Virus record (IMG/VR): IMGVR_UViG_3300027747_000967
Coordinates: 32,001-96,000 of that record
DNA length: 64,000 nt
Reading direction: 5' to 3' (one strand)
From: a virus
The position numbers were made by a program, and so were the translations under genes. Positions within the stretch are counted from its first letter, which is position 1. Each line of letters begins with the position of its first letter. The notes beneath the pieces were generated by a model. The model was not told the DNA's origin. It was given only the letters and a program-made list of their open reading frames with translations, and did no database searches. Of the stretch, positions 31,690 to 58,325 are shown piece by piece.

Positions 31690-32523
31690 TTATACCAGTA
31701 ATTCAATCATCTTTGACATAGGATATTGAGGTTCATATCCTAATTTTTTGATTTTTTTGATGTCTAGTATCATATCTTTTGCTTGAACAATACTATGAAA
31801 TCTAGGTGTTGGTATACTATTAAAAGATGAAGAAGAATTTGTCATTTCCTTAACCTTCAACATTACGTCCATCAAACGAATACCTTCACCGTTCGCTAGG
31901 TTGTAGATTTCATTCTTTTTTCCAGAATTTAGAATAAGGTTGATACCAGACACGACATCATCTACATAAATGTAATCTCTATACACTTCACCACCCTCAT
32001 ATAGATTGATGGGATTACCTTGTTTAACTTCATTAATCATATATTGTAAAGCATTCTTCTTAGCAGACGCCTTGCCATCTGATTTACCTACCACATTACC
32101 TAAACGAATAATACGATAAGGTATTTCAAATGTTTTACAATAAGAAATGAGTAATTGTTCAGCTGCTCGTTTGGTAATTGAATAGAACCCTCTAGGGTCA
32201 CAACCATAGGTTTCTTTAGCAGGTAGTTTAACGTCACCATAGACAAACCAAGAACTAATAAAGTTAAATGTAATATCTTTACCTTTACAAGACTCTAGTA
32301 CTTTAATTAAAGTCGTAAGATTGGTTTCAATGTCAAGATAAGGGTTAGTGTGAACATTATAATTATCAATAGTAGATATAAAGTATAAAACATCCGTAAC
32401 TCCTTCCTTTGCTTTCACTTCATAGTCATTTCTTTCATTAACCCAAAGATATCCATCTGTCAATTCTACATAACGAGAACCTATAAAACCTTTACCTCCA
32501 AAAACATTGATTAATCGTTCCAT
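31690..32523 (-). CDS. NAD-dependent epimerase/dehydratase
   Basis: GGKGFIG, YSITK, RDYIYVDD. Confidence 0.85.
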   Translation of the reverse strand: MERLINVFGGKGFIGSRYVELTDGYLWVNERNDYEVKAKEGVTDVLYFISTIDNYNVHTNPYLDIETNLTTLIKVLESCKGKDITFNFISSWFVYGDVKLPAKETYGCDPRGFYSITKRAAEQLLISYCKTFEIPYRIIRLGNVVGKSDGKASAKKNALQYMINEVKQGNPINLYEGGEVYRDYIYVDDVVSGINLILNSGKKNEIYNLANGEGIRLMDVMLKVKEMTNSSSSFNSIPTPRFHSIVQAKDMILDIKKIKKLGYEPQYPMSKMIELLV

Positions 32524-41494: not shown

Positions 41495-42610
41495 TTATCT
41501 TATAATCTGTATATCTTTACCTGAAGTCCATACTTCAAGTTCGGTTCTTAATCGTCCTTCTTTTTGAAGGGTCTCATATCTATTTATAGCTTTATTCCGC
41601 CACCATTCTACAATATTACCAAGTTCATGTTTATCATAGTTATCGCCTTTTACCAATTGCTCGGCCTTACCATTCATGTAGTCAATCATATTAGAAAAAC
41701 CATAATCTGACACATAATATCTTTTGTGTTCTGTCAACTTCTTAGCGTTCTCAATCGTTAAACTGAATGCCTCCCCTTCAGAACTACCTTTAAGTGCTGC
41801 TTTAGTCATAGATATAATCTTAGTAAATGTTCTTAATTTCCTACTTGTAGTAGATTCATCTTCTTCTAAAATATCTCCACCAACTCTTGCTTCAACATAT
41901 TCTTTTAAATCTGTATATCTTTTACCATTCATCATAGGTACAAAATCAGATACAGTTAAACCTTTATACCGAATGAATGGTTTCATACCATCATATTGAG
42001 ATACTTGTTTTGTTGAACCATAAAGACTTGTTGTTTCAAACAAACAAAGATTCATATTATACTTTTTGTTTACCATTTCTCTTACGGTATGTGATGTGCA
42101 GATGGCGGCCAATAGTTTACCACCAAGATAATTAAATCCAAATGGCTGTGCTGGTACAATTGCAAATCCCATAATTGTTGATTCATTAAATCGTTTTGTT
42201 GATACAGGATTCTGTATCCAAACTTGTCCAAGCATATCATTACGAGGTTTCATATAGATAACAGGTGATGCTAAACGAATTAAACCTAGAATCTTTCCTG
42301 AGTTTTTTTCCTTGACAGCAAATGGTATATTTCTGCCGACAGGTGCTCTATTTACATGAGAAGAAGTAATCGCTAATAATGTATCCCATTGTTGTATTGG
42401 TATTTCACCAATTTCAATATCCATATCTTTTGGGTGCATTGTAAAGTCTGAGAACAAATCATCTTCGGGAGGCCATAAAGCAGAAGTTTGAAAGTTAGAA
42501 ACATGGTTAATCTTTTCTTCTCTCATATATTCTTCAATACTACCATAATTACTAAAGTAATCGTGAAATACTTTTGATACATGAATTGCCGCATCTCTCT
42601 CTAATTTCAT
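41495..42610 (-). CDS. DUF4338/DruA-like protein, paralog 1
   Basis: GRN..F.V.E..SGKILG.I.L.S, IVPAQPFGFNYLGGKLLA, TTSLYG, SQYDG. Confidence 0.75.
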   Translation of the reverse strand: MKLERDAAIHVSKVFHDYFSNYGSIEEYMREEKINHVSNFQTSALWPPEDDLFSDFTMHPKDMDIEIGEIPIQQWDTLLAITSSHVNRAPVGRNIPFAVKEKNSGKILGLIRLASPVIYMKPRNDMLGQVWIQNPVSTKRFNESTIMGFAIVPAQPFGFNYLGGKLLAAICTSHTVREMVNKKYNMNLCLFETTSLYGSTKQVSQYDGMKPFIRYKGLTVSDFVPMMNGKRYTDLKEYVEARVGGDILEEDESTTSRKLRTFTKIISMTKAALKGSSEGEAFSLTIENAKKLTEHKRYYVSDYGFSNMIDYMNGKAEQLVKGDNYDKHELGNIVEWWRNKAINRYETLQKEGRLRTELEVWTSGKDIQIIR

Positions 42611-45306: not shown

Positions 45307-46410
45307 TTAATTAAAAAAATCTTCTAACGAATTTACTTCTTCAGTTGTCCACTTCATACAATCTAAAATAACTTTAATTGGTTCAATAAATGCTTTGTCA
45401 AATTGTTTATCATAGTCAATATACTCCTGTAAATCAAATTCTTTTGGTAATCTTGATGGATAGGATATCACATCTGTTTTATAGTTATTAGGTAATTTGA
45501 GATATGTAAATTTGATTTTTTCTCCTTCTTGAATCAAAGGATATTTCTTTGTCAAACCTTTTTCTTTTAGATAATGATTATAAACAATGGCGCCTCTCAC
45601 ATGAATTGGTGTGCCTGATTTGTAAGCACCATTTGCTTCTGAGTATTTATTCAAACCGTTTAGGCCTCTAGGAAAAGAAATATCTTCAGGTGGTAACTCA
45701 CGAAATTCTTTTCTAAAGTTTTCAATAAAATCATGTATATCTTTTTGAGTACCATTCAACATTAACTTAATGGACTCTTTCATCTTTTCACGAATAGCGG
45801 ATGGTGTAGAAGATTTAACCATCTCTAAACCCATCACTTTCATTTGAGGTTCTTTATACTCAACACCTTCGTTATTATAGATGTTCATAATGTATCGTTT
45901 CTTAGCAGTCCAGATTCCTTTGTTTGCCAACGCTTCACGTTTCATTTCCATCTTCTGCTGATAAGCTCTAGTATAGTCTGCCAACTCATGATAAGATTTA
46001 TCAATAAATGGTTGAATCTTAGTCTCACAGACTTTATCCATGAACGAGATAATCTTTTTATCATCTTCTGTCTTTTCAGCAAAGACTTTTTTGACCAACT
46101 CTCCAAGACGGAGATAAATTGAGTCAGTATCACTTGCAATAACATAATCTACTTCCTCCGTTTCTAATAGTTTGTTCATGTATTGATTTAATTTTGCTTC
46201 TATCCAACGAATGCTTAGTTGGCCTGCTGTCGTAACACCAAGAGCCATCCGTAAATCATAAAACCGAAAGTATTGAGAGCCGCATGCTCCGTAAAGAGAA
46301 TTTAATCCGACTTTTTTAGCTAACTGTATATTATTATTTTTTGATATAGATTTCTTTAGATTATAGTACATTTCAATTAATTCGGTATCAGATAAATTTT
46401 TATAATCCAT
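45307..46410 (-). CDS. gp43: DNA polymerase gp43, C-terminal subunit (gp43B)
   Basis: KKVGLNSLYG motif B, ASDTDS motif C, KKRY, KSSTP. Confidence 0.95.
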   Translation of the reverse strand: MDYKNLSDTELIEMYYNLKKSISKNNNIQLAKKVGLNSLYGACGSQYFRFYDLRMALGVTTAGQLSIRWIEAKLNQYMNKLLETEEVDYVIASDTDSIYLRLGELVKKVFAEKTEDDKKIISFMDKVCETKIQPFIDKSYHELADYTRAYQQKMEMKREALANKGIWTAKKRYIMNIYNNEGVEYKEPQMKVMGLEMVKSSTPSAIREKMKESIKLMLNGTQKDIHDFIENFRKEFRELPPEDISFPRGLNGLNKYSEANGAYKSGTPIHVRGAIVYNHYLKEKGLTKKYPLIQEGEKIKFTYLKLPNNYKTDVISYPSRLPKEFDLQEYIDYDKQFDKAFIEPIKVILDCMKWTTEEVNSLEDFFN

Positions 46411-47095
46411 TATTTAATTTTCCATAATATAATTCTACATCATTGTTTCTATATACTAAAGCTCTTGTAAGATTAGGATTCCTTTTACCATCTTTTCTGA
46501 ACGGTTTCTGTTTTTTTAACCATTCGTTAAATTCTACATCACTCATATTAATATACTTTTCTTTTGTTTTCAACCTAGATTCACTAATTTTTTTGGTTTT
46601 TTCAGTTGAACAAGGAGATGATTTTCTATTTTTAGGATAATTTATTATTTTCATTCCTGTTTTTTTAACTCGCATTTTTTCAATACCATTTTTTATTGAC
46701 TCCTCAGAAGCTCCAAAATATTTTTTTCCAAACATATCATTTCTTATTTTTCCTTTTTTAGCTTCATACATTGCTAGTTTAGCTGAAGCAAATTGTTTAG
46801 ATGTATAACTAACTTTTCTGTGGTTATCGCCACCAGTACCTAATACCATCATATGATATGCTTGTGCCATTTTTCTTGTTTTGTGATTATTGGTTCCATA
46901 TCTTTTTTTAAAAAGTTTCCATAAAAGGTGGTGTGCAATATAGTGTTCCCGTAAAGTTAACTTAACAATATTTTTATTTTTTCCGTAAATGGACTCTGGA
47001 AAAATATGATGGTTTTCATAATTTTTTCTTTCAAATATTACTGTTCTAGTTTTTGCTTTTCTACAAAGTTTTATATAATGTTTTATATAATTCAT
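46400..47095 (-). mobile_element. free-standing HNH homing endonuclease (Mob-like) inside the split gp43 locus
   Basis: YENHHIFPES...NIVKLTLREHYIAHHLL. Confidence 0.85.
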
Positions 47096-47104
47096 TTTTT
47101 TGTC

Positions 47105-47156
47105 CTTAGATTTGAATACCTTTAGTATTTATAAATAAAGACTATTCAACTCTAAG
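47105..47156 (-). promoter_or_regulatory. late promoter inside an RBS-sequestering hairpin
   Basis: arms CTTAGAGTTGAATA and TATTCAAATCTAAG around TATAAATA (47126-47133). Confidence 0.8.
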
Positions 47157-48647
47157 ATTTCTTCTTTCTAATTCAGTTAAAATTAACTCCAATTGTTGTT
47201 TTTCCTTTAACATTATTTTTTTTGCATCTTGCCTTTCTTTAAACATTTTTTCAATTAAACTTGGCATAAATCCTTTAATATCGGTTCTGAAGAATTGTCC
47301 ATTTGGCGTTAATGTTGCATTAACCAATCTAGAAGTCTCTACCTGTTTCATTAATAAACCGTCAAGTGATATACCATCAGATAAAATCTTACGCATTTCA
47401 TCAGTATAGTTTTCAGGTTCAATTAAAGTTTCGGGACTTATATTGTATTGCATCATTAAACTTGGATATAGTGATGTTAAATCAAACGAAACAATCCAAT
47501 CATGTTTGCCTACTTGAACTTCTTTGACATATGCACCCTCAAACATACCGTCTTTTTCTTTATGTTCTTTTGGTGGAACAATGATTTTCTTATCCAACAA
47601 ATACGAATATGTGAGAGCGTCCCACATTCTTGTTTGTGCAAAGACATCTTCAAAGTTTGATTTTGTGTCGTATGCTAGTGTTACTGCTAATTCTAATAAT
47701 TTTAATTTTTCTTCAAGTTTTAGAATCAACATTACGTCTTTAATGTTATACTCAATAAATTTTTGGAAGTTTAGACGATATAACGCATGAAGATTGTCAT
47801 ACTCATCATAAGATATTTTACCTTCACCCAACTCAACTTGAGCGATAGCATCCAAACGATAAGATTCTTGTGACTTACCGCCAGGAGCATACCATTTATA
47901 CAACTCAATATAATCTAATGATGCAAGACCCATCAAACTATATTCAATTAATGTTTTACCATTTACAAGTGTTTTTTTGTCACGAATATAATTCCATGGT
48001 GATAGTTTTTTTGCTTCATCTTCACCGAGAATCTTACGAAAACGATTTACAAGATAAGGTATATCGAAGAACTTTGTATTCCATCCTGTGATAATGTCTG
48101 GACACTTTTTAGACCACATTGTAAGAAACTTTTTACATAAAGTATATTCATCTTTACATTGTAAATAAATTTCATCACCTTGTGCATAGTATTCACCACA
48201 TCCAAACACTACGGTTTCGCCATTAAGATACTTTACACAAATAGCAGTAATAGGTTCATTGGCTTCGTATGGGTCAGGAAATCCATTCTCTGAACCTACC
48301 TCAATATCTATTACGCCTATGAGAACTCTATCAAAATCATAATCAACTAATTTAGGATGCTGGTCAGCAATAAAGGCATACTCATAACGAGTTTGGCCAT
48401 ACATTACAGGTGCACCAGGAAGTCCATCAAATTGTTTAATGTAATCTCTTGCTTCACGAATGTCTTGAAATTGTTTTCTATCTAATGGAAGGCCAGTGAG
48501 TGACTTATAAATTCCTTGTGGATTTTTTCTAGAAGGCAAAAAAAGAGAAGGCGCATAAGCAATCTTCTCTTTTACTCTCTTACCATTTTCTATTCCTCGG
48601 TAAAGAATATTATTACCGAGGACTTCTACGCTTGTATAAAAATTCAA
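47142..48647 (-). CDS. gp43: DNA polymerase gp43, N-terminal subunit (gp43A)
   Basis: DIEV Exo I, GWN..FFD Exo II, YNIKD Exo III, SFDLTSLYPS motif A; TTG start. Confidence 0.95.
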   Translation of the reverse strand: MNFYTSVEVLGNNILYRGIENGKRVKEKIAYAPSLFLPSRKNPQGIYKSLTGLPLDRKQFQDIREARDYIKQFDGLPGAPVMYGQTRYEYAFIADQHPKLVDYDFDRVLIGVIDIEVGSENGFPDPYEANEPITAICVKYLNGETVVFGCGEYYAQGDEIYLQCKDEYTLCKKFLTMWSKKCPDIITGWNTKFFDIPYLVNRFRKILGEDEAKKLSPWNYIRDKKTLVNGKTLIEYSLMGLASLDYIELYKWYAPGGKSQESYRLDAIAQVELGEGKISYDEYDNLHALYRLNFQKFIEYNIKDVMLILKLEEKLKLLELAVTLAYDTKSNFEDVFAQTRMWDALTYSYLLDKKIIVPPKEHKEKDGMFEGAYVKEVQVGKHDWIVSFDLTSLYPSLMMQYNISPETLIEPENYTDEMRKILSDGISLDGLLMKQVETSRLVNATLTPNGQFFRTDIKGFMPSLIEKMFKERQDAKKIMLKEKQQLELILTELERRNLRVE

Positions 48648-48975: not shown

Positions 48976-49050
48976 TGGAGCGGATAGTCAGATTTGAACT
49001 GACGACATTTTCGTTGGCAACGAAACATTCTACCCCTGAATTATACCCGC
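48976..49050 (-). tRNA. tRNA-Gly(GCC)
   Basis: cloverleaf, anticodon loop TTGCCAA, GTTCAAATC T-arm, encoded CCA. Confidence 0.9.
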
Positions 49051-49410: not shown

Positions 49411-49484
49411 TGGTAGCGGGACCTGGATTTGCACCAAGAACTAAGGCTTATGAGGCCATTGTGATACTCTTTCACTATCCCGCA
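49411..49484 (-). tRNA. tRNA-Met(CAT), possibly initiator-like
   Basis: loop CTCATAA, unpaired 1:72, T-arm GTGCAAATC, CCA end. Confidence 0.75.
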
Positions 49485-49494
49485 ATAGAAATTG

Positions 49495-49563
49495 TGGAGC
49501 GGTGTCTTTGAGTTGCACAAAGATAATTAAGAGGGAATCTCAATTTGTTCTCCAACCCACCGC
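49495..49563 (-). tRNA. non-canonical tRNA-Gly(TCC)
   Basis: 69 nt; GCGGTG/CACCGC acceptor, T73 and CCA; mini D-arm; loop ATTCCCT; T-arm CTTTG-TGCAACT-CAAAG. Confidence 0.7.
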
Positions 49564-49569
49564 ATATTC

Positions 49570-49713
49570 TTAATTTAATGTTATCTGCTCGATTTAGGGG
49601 TCTGGTGCTTCCATCCCATAGCGAATAAGCAGTTATCTCAGGACCTATTCCTCGCCAGTTAGACCCGAATAGTTAATACGTCTATTAACGATACCTTGAT
49701 AACACTAAATTAA
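49570..49713 (-). ncRNA. candidate structured ncRNA A
   Basis: 16-bp closing stem plus internal hairpins. Confidence 0.55.
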
Positions 49714-49801
49714 AAATCCCGCTTACCGTTTGCGGGGTCATCATACCAGATTACTCGGTTCTATGACGGTCACAACTTGCTGTTTCTCAACAGTAGATAC
49801 T

Positions 49802-49830
49802 AGTATAACATTATATATATCAAAAGTCAA
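49802..49830 (-). promoter_or_regulatory. sigma70-like promoter for the downstream RNA genes
   Basis: TTGACT-17 nt-TATACT with extended -10 TG. Confidence 0.75.
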
Positions 49831-50132: not shown

Positions 50133-50297
50133 TTATATACAATAACTCAAATTAATGCACATAATAGGATACAATTTTTTAGATTTCTCTTTACGTCTTA
50201 AAGCTTTGTTACTTTTTTTATGACTACCCGCTTTACGAAACAATGCCAATTTGACAAGATAGTTTCGTTCTTTGGGAGTAGAATCTTTCTTTTTCAT
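50133..50297 (-). CDS. small basic protein, ArfA-like ribosome-rescue factor candidate (not in ORF track)
   Basis: TAAGGAG RBS; MKKKDSTPKERNYLVKLALFRKAGSHKKSNKALRRKEKSKKLYPIMCINLSYCI; 16-bp hairpin over its 3' end. Confidence 0.65.
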   Translation of the reverse strand: MKKKDSTPKERNYLVKLALFRKAGSHKKSNKALRRKEKSKKLYPIMCINLSYCI

Positions 50298-50944: not shown

Positions 50945-51457
50945 TTATTGATATTGTTTCCAACCAATAGGTTCTTCCTCTATTGGGTCATCTGGATTAC
51001 AAATGCCTTCAAATACTTCCCATAATTTTTCTTGAACTACAAATTTACGAAATAAACCACCTTCCATTCCGTATGCTTCTATTTCCCAAGGTTGACTCCA
51101 ATAATCCAAATCTTCTGCTACATGAGCACCTTTCCAACGAGTTAGGTTATCATTGGTTTCACTATAAGCGTATTGTTTAATGTGAACCATCTCATGGCCT
51201 AAAGATTTAAGAATATTTCTTCCACCAATCTTTGGATTCATTTCAATCAAAAAGTTTCTGGCTTTACCTAAATCTGTTCTTTCTTCAACGGAAGCATATC
51301 CATAAACATCATCAATCTTTTTATTAAAGATAACTTTGATACAGATATTTTCCAACATTTTTGCGGTAAGTAATTCTTGCGCATAGAATAAAATAGCCCT
51401 TTTGACATAAGGACGGAATCGCTCTTTATCGGGACAACCAACTATACTTAACTTCAT
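50945..51457 (-). CDS. zincin-like metallopeptidase
   Basis: LGHEMVHIKQY...YWSQPWEIEAY. Confidence 0.8.
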   Translation of the reverse strand: MKLSIVGCPDKERFRPYVKRAILFYAQELLTAKMLENICIKVIFNKKIDDVYGYASVEERTDLGKARNFLIEMNPKIGGRNILKSLGHEMVHIKQYAYSETNDNLTRWKGAHVAEDLDYWSQPWEIEAYGMEGGLFRKFVVQEKLWEVFEGICNPDDPIEEEPIGWKQYQ

Positions 51458-51597: not shown

Positions 51598-51951
51598 TTA
51601 TGCTTGACGCCTGAAAAATCTTTGTTTGATATTTTTTGGTTTGAAATGTTCTTCAATTGATTTGACCACTTTTGTTTCATCAAAATCTTTGCAACTAAAG
51701 ATATCCATATAAAGGTCACCATTAATATCTAAAAAGTGACCCATAATATTAGAAGTTTCAATAAGTTGTGATACTGTCCATCCTGCTTTATCTGTTCCAT
51801 CAGCAAAATGAACAAGTTGTGGTTCACCATAAGGAACCATTTCAATTAAACGAACTAAATCTTTAGTGAAGTGTGTAATGTATTCTGGATCCGTTGCTCT
51901 TTGAATTTCGCAACCCTTTATATCTAACATTAAATGGTAACCCCAATACAT
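51598..51951 (-). CDS. speD: S-adenosylmethionine decarboxylase proenzyme
   Basis: WGYHLMLD, QLIETSNI (self-cleavage Ser), YMDIFSCKDF. Confidence 0.85.
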   Translation of the reverse strand: MYWGYHLMLDIKGCEIQRATDPEYITHFTKDLVRLIEMVPYGEPQLVHFADGTDKAGWTVSQLIETSNIMGHFLDINGDLYMDIFSCKDFDETKVVKSIEEHFKPKNIKQRFFRRQA

Positions 51952-52262: not shown

Positions 52263-52724
52263 CTATTCATCTTTGGCTTTTACGGTAATCTTTTTTACCA
52301 TATCCTGTGCTTTAATCATGTTTTCCAACCAAACTCTTAACATACCATTCATTAATTCAGCATCTTTAATTTCTACCGAATCAGCCAATGTAAATGTACG
52401 TTCAAAGTTACGGCCAGCAATACCTTTGAAAATGTATGAACCGTCTGTTTCATTATCTTTTGATACTCCTTTGATAACCAATTTGTCGCCTTGTAAAGTA
52501 ACTTCAATATCAGACTTAGCAAAACCAGCAACTGCCATTTCAATAACATACTTGTTTTCTTTTACTTGTTTGATATTGTATGGAGGATAACCAGGTGTTG
52601 CTTTGGCCATTTCGGTGTGCATAGATTGAAGTTTATCAATCACTTCATCAAAACCGATGGTGAAAGGGTCAAAAGATTTGTGGATTTTATCCCATTGTGG
52701 GAATAGAGTGAGGGTGCTTGTCAT
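52263..52724 (-). CDS. small heat-shock protein (Hsp20/IbpA-like)
   Basis: IGFD, YPPYNI, MAVAGF, GIA.RNF.RTF.L, NGML. Confidence 0.95.
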   Translation of the reverse strand: MTSTLTLFPQWDKIHKSFDPFTIGFDEVIDKLQSMHTEMAKATPGYPPYNIKQVKENKYVIEMAVAGFAKSDIEVTLQGDKLVIKGVSKDNETDGSYIFKGIAGRNFERTFTLADSVEIKDAELMNGMLRVWLENMIKAQDMVKKITVKAKDE

Positions 52725-57059: not shown

Positions 57060-58325
57060 TTAACGCCCAACTTGTGGTAAATATTTCGCCTTGGTTTCTT
57101 CCCAAGTTAGGTAAATAAGGTCATCATAAAATAATGATTCGTATGATACCGTATTCTTTTTCTTTAACATGGAAATACGGCCTTTGGCATATTTTGTTTT
57201 CCACAAATTGGATAATGTTTGTTCGCTGGTATCAAACATTTTTAATAATTTTTCTTCTGGTATTTGTTTACAAAGATATTCATTAGTATTATAATACAAA
57301 GGCGAAAAATAAATTCCACGCTGGTGTTCGCTACGAATCAGTTCTTTAGGTATACCAAGTTTAGGATAGGCAAAGTTTAATGAACGATTTTTATGGTCAC
57401 GCTTGAGTGGTAGACCTTGAGTGTTCTTTGCGTCCCACCATTCAAAATATTTTCTAGGATAATTTTCTTTAATCCATTCGTAAACCATTTTAGATGTAGT
57501 TCTTTTAGGTTCAAATACAACTGAACCTGATGAGAATCCCATCTTGTTCCAATGTTCTAGTCCATCATACTGAGAAAGACCATTAGACTTAGTGTTGCCA
57601 TAAAGAGAAGTTGTTGTAACTCCGACAAGGACATCTTCATATCTTTCTTTCCAATCTTTTTGAACTGTATCAGATAAACATAATAATGCAAGTAACTTAC
57701 CGCCCATATAATTATAACCGAGAGGTTGCATAGGAACGATTGTAGAACCAATGGCCGTATGATTAATCATGCCCTGTTGTGTTTTTACATCTCTTGGCCA
57801 GCCAATTGCTTTATCTCTTGGCGTTAAATCAAGAAAGTCGGAAGAAATACAAATGACACCAAGATACTTGCCTGTTACTTCATCAATGATTGTATAAAAT
57901 AGATTACGACCAATGTTTGAATTATTTTTCATTGTAGAAGAAAAGGTACGAATGGCATTCCATGTTTCTGCTAAAGGACCATTCGATAAAACAAGTTTTG
58001 GTTTTAATAAAATATAATCATCAGGATTTTTTGGCATCCAAAAATTAGATTTAACTTGTTCAATAAGTTTTTCTTGTTCAGCATTTACCATTTGCATTTC
58101 TGTACCAAACAATGTATCTACTTCTTGAACAGGATATCTTTCTTTAACTTCACACCACTTTTGGTACAAAGTATATTCTTTGACATCCATTTTAGAAGCG
58201 TAAGTTAAATCTTCAATTAACTGATTTTTAAGTTGTTCAGTATCAATGTGTTTAAAGGAAGAAACAGGATTCTTTTCTTGCCATTCTACCCATTGTTTTT
58301 CAACAAATTCAATTGGAGTTGCCAT
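57060..58325 (-). CDS. DUF4338/DruA-like protein, paralog 2
   Basis: GRNLFY...TGKYLGVI.ISSD, IVPMQPLGYNYMGGKLLA, TTSLYG, SQYDG. Confidence 0.8.
   Translation of the reverse strand: MATPIEFVEKQWVEWQEKNPVSSFKHIDTEQLKNQLIEDLTYASKMDVKEYTLYQKWCEVKERYPVQEVDTLFGTEMQMVNAEQEKLIEQVKSNFWMPKNPDDYILLKPKLVLSNGPLAETWNAIRTFSSTMKNNSNIGRNLFYTIIDEVTGKYLGVICISSDFLDLTPRDKAIGWPRDVKTQQGMINHTAIGSTIVPMQPLGYNYMGGKLLALLCLSDTVQKDWKERYEDVLVGVTTTSLYGNTKSNGLSQYDGLEHWNKMGFSSGSVVFEPKRTTSKMVYEWIKENYPRKYFEWWDAKNTQGLPLKRDHKNRSLNFAYPKLGIPKELIRSEHQRGIYFSPLYYNTNEYLCKQIPEEKLLKMFDTSEQTLSNLWKTKYAKGRISMLKKKNTVSYESLFYDDLIYLTWEETKAKYLPQVGR

Follow-up and report, generated by a model that had tools for sequence, protein, structure and literature searches.

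The stretch of viral DNA considered here (the window) comprises 64,000 nucleotides (nt), positions 32,001 to 96,000 of IMG/VR virus record IMGVR_UViG_3300027747_000967, and it holds, at 49495..49563 (-), the gene of a 69-nt transfer RNA (tRNA)-like molecule with an encoded CCA end, referred to below as the mini RNA. This molecule is a real, conserved, structured and non-canonical relative of tRNA-Gly, an assignment that draws on its sequence, its fold, further copies in other contigs, covariance models and covariation; judged by sequence, it also appears to share the unusual features of the only known class of non-proteogenic tRNA-Gly. A probability of about 0.5 is given to the reading that the mini RNA is a phage-encoded, miniaturised, non-proteogenic tRNA-Gly, that is, a carrier that would be charged with glycine and would take no part in decoding.

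Sequence and fold of the mini RNA

The mini RNA begins with the acceptor 5' strand GCGGUG (nt 1-6; 49558..49563 (-)), which pairs with CACCGC (nt 60-65) to form six acceptor pairs, the next position being occupied by G7 facing A66. The acceptor 3' strand is followed by the discriminator U73 (nt 66) and the encoded CCA (nt 67-69), the whole of this end lying at 49495..49504 (-). Between the two strands are found a mini D arm (nt 8-17; 49547..49556 (-)) with a stem of 3 base pairs (bp), GUU/AAC, and the tetraloop GGAG; an extended anticodon-like arm of eight pairs (nt 19-39; 49525..49545 (-)); and a T arm (nt 42-58; 49506..49522 (-)) with the 5-bp stem CUUUG/CAAAG and the loop UGCAACU, in which G55-C56 is present and U55 is missing. 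The anticodon-like stem is made of 7 bp and an extra A32-U38 pair, which closes a loop of five nucleotides, UUCCC (nt 27-31; 49533-49537 (-)), and both U33 and C37 are present in this copy. In the single-strand calculation, the minimum free energy of the element is -19.8 kcal/mol for a cloverleaf-like fold, compared with -12.77 +/- 2.36 for shuffled sequences (z -2.98), and none of 200 shuffles is as stable. A preliminary description of the locus, prepared from the letters alone, had given a sequence that matches the minus strand exactly, and had read from it a 3-bp mini D-arm, GUGC in place of GTPsiC (G55 where U55 is expected), a pyrimidine at position 37 (C37) and an extended anticodon stem, all of which are borne out by the fold set out above; the encoded CCA, U73, G1-C72, C2-G71 and CC anticodon bases that it listed are likewise seen in the element and prove to be invariant in the family.

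The gene escapes the programs by which tRNAs are usually annotated. ARAGORN does not call the element at its default or in seven further settings, which cover the standard, intron, mitochondrial and mammalian-mitochondrial modes and thresholds of 90% and 80%, and the Rfam tRNA covariance model RF00005 leaves it unmatched at the gathering score (29 bits) as well as at E<=10 on stretches of 2.2 kb and 91 nt. The six ordinary tRNAs of the same array are detected by both ARAGORN and the Rfam model, the latter with scores of 51-66 bits, and the matches of a 2-kb blastn search against GenBank phages are confined to ordinary tRNAs. Among the features by which membership of RF00005 is recognized, the four-helix cloverleaf is present, backed by covariation in an alignment fitted to the model; U54-U55-C56 is lacking, and a 7-nt loop with U33 and a purine at position 37 is absent as a rule of the family.

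Conservation in one phage lineage

An exact scan with the anticodon arm returned one further contig (L002), whose mini RNA is identical to that of the window at 69 of 69 nt, with both flanks barely alignable. Pattern scans returned 12 loci with the 3' part of the element, 18 with the 5' part (one of them by chance) and 18 with a gapped pattern, and, together with the window, the scans yield 36 copies of eight variants. One locus (L016) was dropped as a chance match to a 17-nt pattern, another (L007) was dropped with a copy cut by the contig end, and a contig of 1x coverage with two odd changes (L033) was left out of alignments A4 and A5. The copy counts are not independent, because no fewer than six metagenome loci agree in length and sequence with loci of the viral collection and are probably the same contigs. 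Variation among the eight variants is confined to the anticodon arm, in which pairing is kept, including a switch at 32-38 from A-U to C-G. A '6/6' reading of the acceptor and T stems was rejected, since the sixth T-stem pair would set C opposite A in 13 of the 36 copies (two variants).

The wider family was gathered by way of a 170-amino-acid (aa) gene that precedes the array: 80 loci were fetched, and 77 of them were searched with a covariance model (R1) built from the eight variants, which gave 64 short matches of 65-70 nt, one of them truncated where its contig stops, as well as 10 canonical tRNA-Gly of 74 nt. The mini RNAs fall into three sub-types, namely A (69 nt, that of the window), B (70 nt) and C (67-68 nt), and the window copy scores 101 bits both with R1 and with a broader model, R2. 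Where a related locus extends 4 kb or more beyond the marker gene on its downstream side, the mini RNA is present in 40 of 41 cases, and where it extends 6 kb or more, in 33 of 34; R2 finds no match in 10 related loci without a mini RNA, and two loci, L113 (6 kb downstream) and L106, have none in the stretch searched. The covariance model, which the preliminary description had named as a check, finds the family across one phage lineage. No description of phage RNAs of this kind was found in a literature search that included the review PMC7609411, with supplements and subscription journals outside its scope.

Covariation and constrained positions

An alignment of 61 mini RNAs from 75 sources, of which 38 are distinct and from which ten loci duplicating sub-type A contigs were omitted, was used to assess the helices. 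Among the 38 distinct sequences, 99.6% of the cells are paired, against 36-51% when the partners are slid by 1-3 columns, and changes on both sides occur at 14 of the 22 pairs; the covariation score is 0.570, compared with 0.196 +/- 0.013 in shuffles, none of 500 of which reaches it. The two-sided changes are distributed over the D helix (2 of 3 pairs), the anticodon helix (8 of 8), the T helix (3 of 5) and acceptor pair 5-68, and each of the four helices is 99-100% paired, the D helix fully so. Despite an alignment that leans on the structure and sequences that are related, the helices are well supported, and the earlier claim that all stems are intact, in a way that argues against decay, is strengthened by compensatory changes in all four.

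The positions that do not vary include those that bear on charging. Invariant in 38/38 are G1-C72, C2-G71, G3-C70, G4-C69, U73, CCA, C35, C36, G53-C61, G55 and C56, and so is the AG with which the D loop ends. The set of glycine identity elements in bacteria, consisting of U73, G1-C72, C2-G71, C35 and C36 (PMC9976931, PMC7826273; these two papers, as well as PMC13443448, PMC13219725, PMC10853773, PMC12409363 and PMC7029224 below, are cited from excerpts), is wholly invariant across the 38. The T loop reads UGC or AGC in every sequence, which agrees with the staphylococcal-like GUGC hallmark proposed earlier, a TGC-type T loop being shared with the staphylococcal class (PMC7826273). The D stem is GUU/AAC, GUA/UAC or GUG/CAC across the family. 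By comparison, the anticodon loop is free to change at position 33 (U 21, G 13, C 3, A 1), at position 34 (U 21, A 17) and at position 37 (C 24, A 14), and the 32-38 pair (AU 22, UA 13, CG 3) is Watson-Crick in every member, therefore leaving an anticodon loop of 5 nt. Read from the sequences, this pattern of selection fits a molecule that is charged and not one that decodes. The oddities of the mini RNA are specific and not general to the tRNAs of these loci, where 238 of 249 distinct ordinary tRNAs, all 21 tRNA-Gly included, have a TTCRA T loop, compared with 0/38 mini RNAs.

Redundancy with canonical tRNA-Gly and probable expression

The preliminary description had placed a normal tRNA-Gly(GCC) nearby, and this gene, the ordinary glycine decoder of the phage, is located at 48976..49050 (-) with a score of 65.3 bits. 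Many related loci have a canonical tRNA-Gly (GCC or UCC) that begins 5-7 nt after the mini RNA; for instance, three loci (L094, L095 and L098) combine sub-type C with both canonical Gly(GCC) and Gly(UCC) in arrays of about 27 tRNAs, and L002, with the mini RNA identical to that of the window, also has a canonical Gly(UCC). The canonical tRNA-Gly beside the mini RNA suggests that in such loci the latter is not needed for decoding. At the other extreme, some loci hold hardly more than one mini RNA and a tRNA-Met, and three (L057, L072 and L115) hold two mini RNAs each.

Upstream promoters make it likely that the mini RNA is expressed. In sub-types B and C, 24 of the 33 distinct upstream flanks carry TTGAC[AT]-17-TANNNT ending 8-9 nt before G1, mostly in the form TTGACA-17-TATAGT with TG, which is near consensus; a promoter of this pattern just before G1 is found in none of six sub-type A flanks. 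In the window, a sigma-70-like promoter, TTGACT-17-TATACT with TG (49802..49830 (-)), is the probable source of a putative single transcript that takes in a structured leader (~49570-49800), the mini RNA and an unusual tRNA-Met, and this promoter and the first ~100 nt of the leader are kept in L002 (4975-5095). Full-length genes related to the mini RNA are present in cultured phages: Mosig (MT647606 7779-7852 (-)) and HTVC008M (KC465899 91140-91213 (+)) each have a 74-nt gene that resembles tRNA-Gly(ACC) and has G55-C56 in its T loop; with R2 these genes score 37 and 29 bits, respectively, and ARAGORN calls that of HTVC008M and not that of Mosig.

A proposed role outside translation

In the preferred reading, the mini RNA would be transcribed within the tRNA array and trimmed to a 69-nt cloverleaf ending in its encoded CCA, after which the host GlyRS (glycyl-tRNA synthetase) of bacterial type would charge it with glycine through G1-C72, C2-G71, U73, C35 and C36. 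The 3-bp D arm, G55 and the 8-bp stem with its 5-nt loop would keep it from decoding on the ribosome, and it would thereby supply glycyl groups, as a carrier or donor set apart, to a reaction elsewhere.

Several observations weigh against such a role. A single phage lineage is the source of all the sequences, and the alignment behind the counts was fitted to the structure of the model. U33 is kept in all seven distinct sub-type A variants, and the loop could open to 7 nt with the anticodon UCC. Moreover, the record from which the window is taken has no canonical tRNA-Gly(UCC); with glycine codons of GGT 66%, GGC 13.5%, GGA 18.5% and GGG 1.8%, so that GGA and GGG make up 20%, a decoding role is possible for the window copy. 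The D loop GGAG of sub-type A holds GG, so a loss of G18-G19 is not clear there; in sub-types B and C the D loops, AUAG or UAG, have no GG. When the T stems are compared by eye, the first three pairs (C-G, U-A, U-A) are no weaker than those of the relatives' Gly(UCC) (A-U, U-A, U-A), and no anti-determinant against EF-Tu is evident. Finally, FemAB (PF02388), Acetyltransf_6 (PF13480), LPG_synthase_C, Leu_Phe_trans and Mom have no matches in this record, which is 71% complete.

Alternative explanations

The opposite view, that the mini RNA is a working decoder, a D-arm-reduced tRNA-Gly(UCC) that reads GGA and GGG and complements tRNA-Gly(GCC), starts from what sub-type A retains, namely U33, the UCC anticodon, the acceptor/T stack and CCA; Gly(GCC) is the sole canonical glycine tRNA of a record in which GGA accounts for 18.5% of glycine codons, it partners the mini RNA at most sub-type A loci, and ARAGORN calls the related 74-nt gene of HTVC008M a tRNA-Gly(ACC). 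However, the 32-38 position covaries as a Watson-Crick pair even within sub-type A (A-U to C-G), the molecule carries G55, C37 and a 3-bp D arm, and it is rejected by the tRNA model and by ARAGORN. The identical RNA of L002 has a canonical Gly(UCC) beside it, position 34 has changed from U to A in L025 and L036, and position 33 is occupied by G, C or A in the sister sub-types, so that decoding is regarded as an unlikely function. The same freedom at positions 33, 34 and 37 tells against an anticodon-nuclease bait, in which the whole loop should be kept, and this bears on the proposal that the mini RNA is a decoy or sponge, a mimic of tRNA-Gly that would absorb a host factor (for example, a GNAT toxin of TacT/AtaT type, by which Gly-tRNA-Gly is acetylated, or a tRNA nuclease) and so protect the translating pool. 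The specificity marks of TacT, U73 and G71 (PMC9976931), are invariant in the mini RNAs, phage tRNAs that counter tRNA-targeting defences are known (PMC12409363), and sub-types B and C have a strong dedicated promoter; the nearest cultured relatives, however, infect SAR11. These bacteria have few known toxin-antitoxin systems, no matching toxin is known from such hosts, and a decoy is regarded as rather improbable.

An uncharged role is conceivable as well, in which the mini RNA would be a tRNA-like regulatory or processing element, either as RNase P / RNase Z punctuation that frees the structured RNA upstream and the genes downstream, or as a mimic that binds a tRNA-binding protein without glycine. 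Its place between the structured leader and the next tRNA would suit this role, as would the fact that B and C copies open a transcript and are followed after 18-26 nt by a small basic open reading frame (ORF), and the tRNA cluster of T4 holds stable RNAs whose role is unknown. A cutting signal, however, needs no invariant C35-C36, U73 or first four acceptor pairs, nor does it call for three conserved paralogous sub-types or for two copies in L057, L072 and L115, and this role likewise seems rather improbable. The idea of a decaying pseudogene, which the resemblance to a tRNA-Gly with a deleted D arm beside intact tRNA-Gly genes might invite, was rejected as having next to no chance, because the RNA is near-universal in its lineage (40/41 loci), it is identical in L002 where the flanks have diverged, and it shows compensatory changes in four helices and promoters of its own.

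DUF4338 proteins as candidate partners

The window encodes two DruA/DUF4338-like proteins, one of 421 aa (57060..58325 (-); PF14236, 69 bits) with a GNAT-fold domain at residues ~105-365, and a paralogue of 371 aa (41495..42610 (-); PF14236, 35 bits; phrog_19197). The AF2 model of the former has a predicted local distance difference test (pLDDT) score of 95.7, and VIA-align relates it over residues ~105-365 to many GNATs with Z 9.7-8.5, Mom (8bv8_A) being tied near the top with Z 9.5, a root-mean-square deviation of 4.3 and the longest alignment, 187 residues. Foldseek matches are weak and all of GNAT type (best E 7.9e-3; Mom 8bv8_B, E 0.046), with none at E<=0.001. A GNAT fold is thus what the structural model assigns to the DUF4338 proteins, in agreement with the preliminary description and with PMC10853773, where DUF4338 is termed a GNAT domain. 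Membership of the Mom family by sequence was rejected: PF25680 has no matches at E<=1 in the record, and hhalign against Mu Mom yields a 17-column local match, RG(V/I)Y, with E 0.055 and a probability of 1%. In a phmmer search of DUF4338 against PDB sequences nothing lies below E 0.5, and one cyanophage homologue of DUF4338 is annotated as 'methylcarbamoylase mom'.

The use of Gly-tRNA by Mu Mom, for which the preliminary description had relied on report, is in print: phage Mu Mom uses Gly-tRNA-Gly to modify DNA, the product being an N6-adenine hypermodification, and draws on host tRNAs, of which all three E. coli isoacceptors work (PMC13219725). By analogy, the mini RNA might hand glycine to the two DUF4338/DruA-like GNAT enzymes, which would then glycylate DNA, or some other target of phage or host, while sparing the tRNA-Gly that serves translation; this extension is regarded as doubtful. 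The two proteins are the only candidate glycine acceptor enzymes seen, Acetyltransf_1 also having no matches in the 71%-complete record, and their link to the RNA is a weak and hypothetical one. The co-occurrence anticipated earlier holds within the lineage. On the one hand, PF14236 is found in 10/10 larger records that bear a mini RNA, with both paralogues in eight, and HTVC008M and Mosig each combine a DUF4338 gene with the G55-type tRNA-Gly(ACC)-like gene; such co-occurrence is not independent evidence, because it concerns one lineage with a conserved gene order. On the other hand, no mini RNA is present in four of four DUF4338-bearing cyanophage or marine virus records, of which S-SCSM2R and S-SSM7 have a canonical tRNA-Gly(UCC) alone and S-CAM9 and AG-345-O18 give no match. 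The association is thus confined to what is seen in one lineage, and the DUF4338 family does not require it.

Phage genome and tRNA array

The source record comprises 119,998 bases and belongs to a freshwater phage of T4-like type, whose genes include those of UvsX, a gp41-like helicase, a split gp43 polymerase, RegA, gp44/62, gp45 and gp46. By its DUF4338 protein, the nearest cultured relatives are the Pelagibacter phages Mosig (59%) and HTVC008M (55%), and, judged from these two, the phage probably infects Gram-negative bacteria of SAR11-like type, which have no glycine bridges. Freshwater pelagimyophages have been described in PMC7029224, in the excerpts of which RNAs like the mini RNA are not mentioned. 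The minus-strand array runs in the order Glu, Asp, Thr, Cys, mini RNA, Met, Gly(GCC). The tRNA-Met(CAU), 10 nt downstream of the mini RNA (49411..49484 (-); 51 bits with the Rfam model), is itself unusual, with U1 opposite U72, a 28-42 mismatch, a T loop that reads UGCAAAU (G55) and no GG in its D loop; in relatives, most arrays close with an initiator-like tRNA-Met in which A1 or C1 is mismatched to A72. In L025, which has an array of about 23 tRNAs, ARAGORN gives a tRNA whose anticodon has four bases (atcg) and to which it assigns no amino acid.

Upstream of the mini RNA, the conserved leader RNA of ~100 nt ends in a hairpin and a U run and is followed by a variable structured stretch of ~140 nt, although in L010 and L011 the mini RNA comes directly after the hairpin. 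At many loci of sub-types B and C, the mini RNA shares its promoter with a conserved basic ORF of 55-70 aa, which starts 18-26 nt further downstream; the product of this ORF has a K-rich N-terminal part and a PRLGPLN motif (e.g., L060 1182-1355, L079 8966-9181 and L096 6647-6820), with no Pfam match and no homologue in the record of the window. Another basic ORF, of 54 aa (50133-50297 (-)), has a strong ribosome-binding site; it runs as far as the 5' end of tRNA-Thr, and no Pfam or PHROG family matches it. Directly upstream of the array lies the 170-aa gene used as marker (50945-51457 (-)), at a median of 180 nt from the mini RNA in relatives; it encodes an HExxH protein without a Pfam match, whose AF2 model (pLDDT 87) gives weak zincin-like fold matches (best E 1.4e-3) that include proteases of Wss1/SprT type and the endoribonuclease YbeY. 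Two genes stand between regA and the array, one resembling that of S-adenosylmethionine decarboxylase (117 aa; 51598-51951 (-)) and one for Hsp20 (52263-52724 (-)), and the family B DNA polymerase (45307-48647 (-)) is split into ORFs of 501 aa and 367 aa with a 231-aa gene resembling an HNH homing endonuclease between them.

Significance and comparison with known systems

Annotation guided by the usual tools overlooks the mini RNA gene entirely, though hardly any member of an abundant group of freshwater T4-like phages lacks it, and two cultured Pelagibacter phages, HTVC008M and Mosig, have full-length relatives of the G55 type. If the mini RNA is indeed charged and not used by the ribosome, it would add a second case, and the first of viral origin, to the known non-proteogenic tRNA-Gly; if the DUF4338 proteins were to take glycine from it, this would be the first instance of a virus encoding a dedicated carrier tRNA, and a biochemical function would be gained for the DruA fold of Druantia. 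That Mom draws its glycine from Gly-tRNA-Gly makes the idea of a phage-supplied glycyl carrier directly testable.

The canonical tRNA (RF00005) and the mini RNA have in common the four-helix cloverleaf, the stacked acceptor and T helices, G53-C61, the encoded CCA and a place in a tRNA array. The phage RNA, however, is not matched by the model even at E<=10, and it differs by its mini D arm, the want of U55, a Watson-Crick 32-38 pair and a U33 that is not conserved throughout the family. A shortened D arm, an extended anticodon stem and a length below 70 nt are also found in the D-arm-reduced mitochondrial tRNAs; these decode with co-evolved factors, whereas the phage RNA has tRNAs of normal size beside it, and ARAGORN is silent on it in mitochondrial mode. 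The 'species 1 and 2' of T4 are likewise small stable RNAs in the tRNA cluster of a T4-like phage, but they are longer and are not known to carry the glycine identity set.

The Mu Mom system resembles the present one in that a phage, an enzyme of GNAT fold and glycine from Gly-tRNA-Gly come together in it (PMC13219725), the phage here having two GNAT-fold DUF4338 proteins. In contrast, Mom works on host tRNAs, DUF4338 stands outside the Mom family by sequence, and no DNA modification is known for these phages.

The closest likeness is to the non-proteogenic tRNA-Gly of staphylococci, which serve Fem-family transferases in cell-wall building instead of translation and in which the T loop has TGC or TGT for TTC and the anticodon arm has a six-pair stem and a five-base loop (PMC7826273), G18-G19 and U55 are missing, and one member, NP3, has a 3-bp D stem (PMC13443448). 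C37, which the preliminary description had named as a staphylococcal feature, is not found as such in the excerpts of PMC7826273 or PMC13443448. The phage RNA differs in being phage-encoded and 67-70 nt long, some 7 nt shorter, in having a D arm cut to 3 bp and a 4-nt loop and an anticodon stem of eight pairs, and in bearing UCC or ACC at the anticodon positions; no Fem ligase is found in the 71%-complete phage record, the likeness is taken as convergent and not as inherited, and the function on the phage side is a putative one. Both, however, keep the full GlyRS identity set together with a TGC-type T loop without U55, and both gain an extra pair that leaves a 5-nt anticodon loop; the interaction of the D and T loops, weakened in the staphylococcal class, may be weakened in the phage RNA too, the 3-bp D stem is shared with NP3, and the staphylococcal class, like the mini RNA, stands beside ordinary tRNA-Gly genes.

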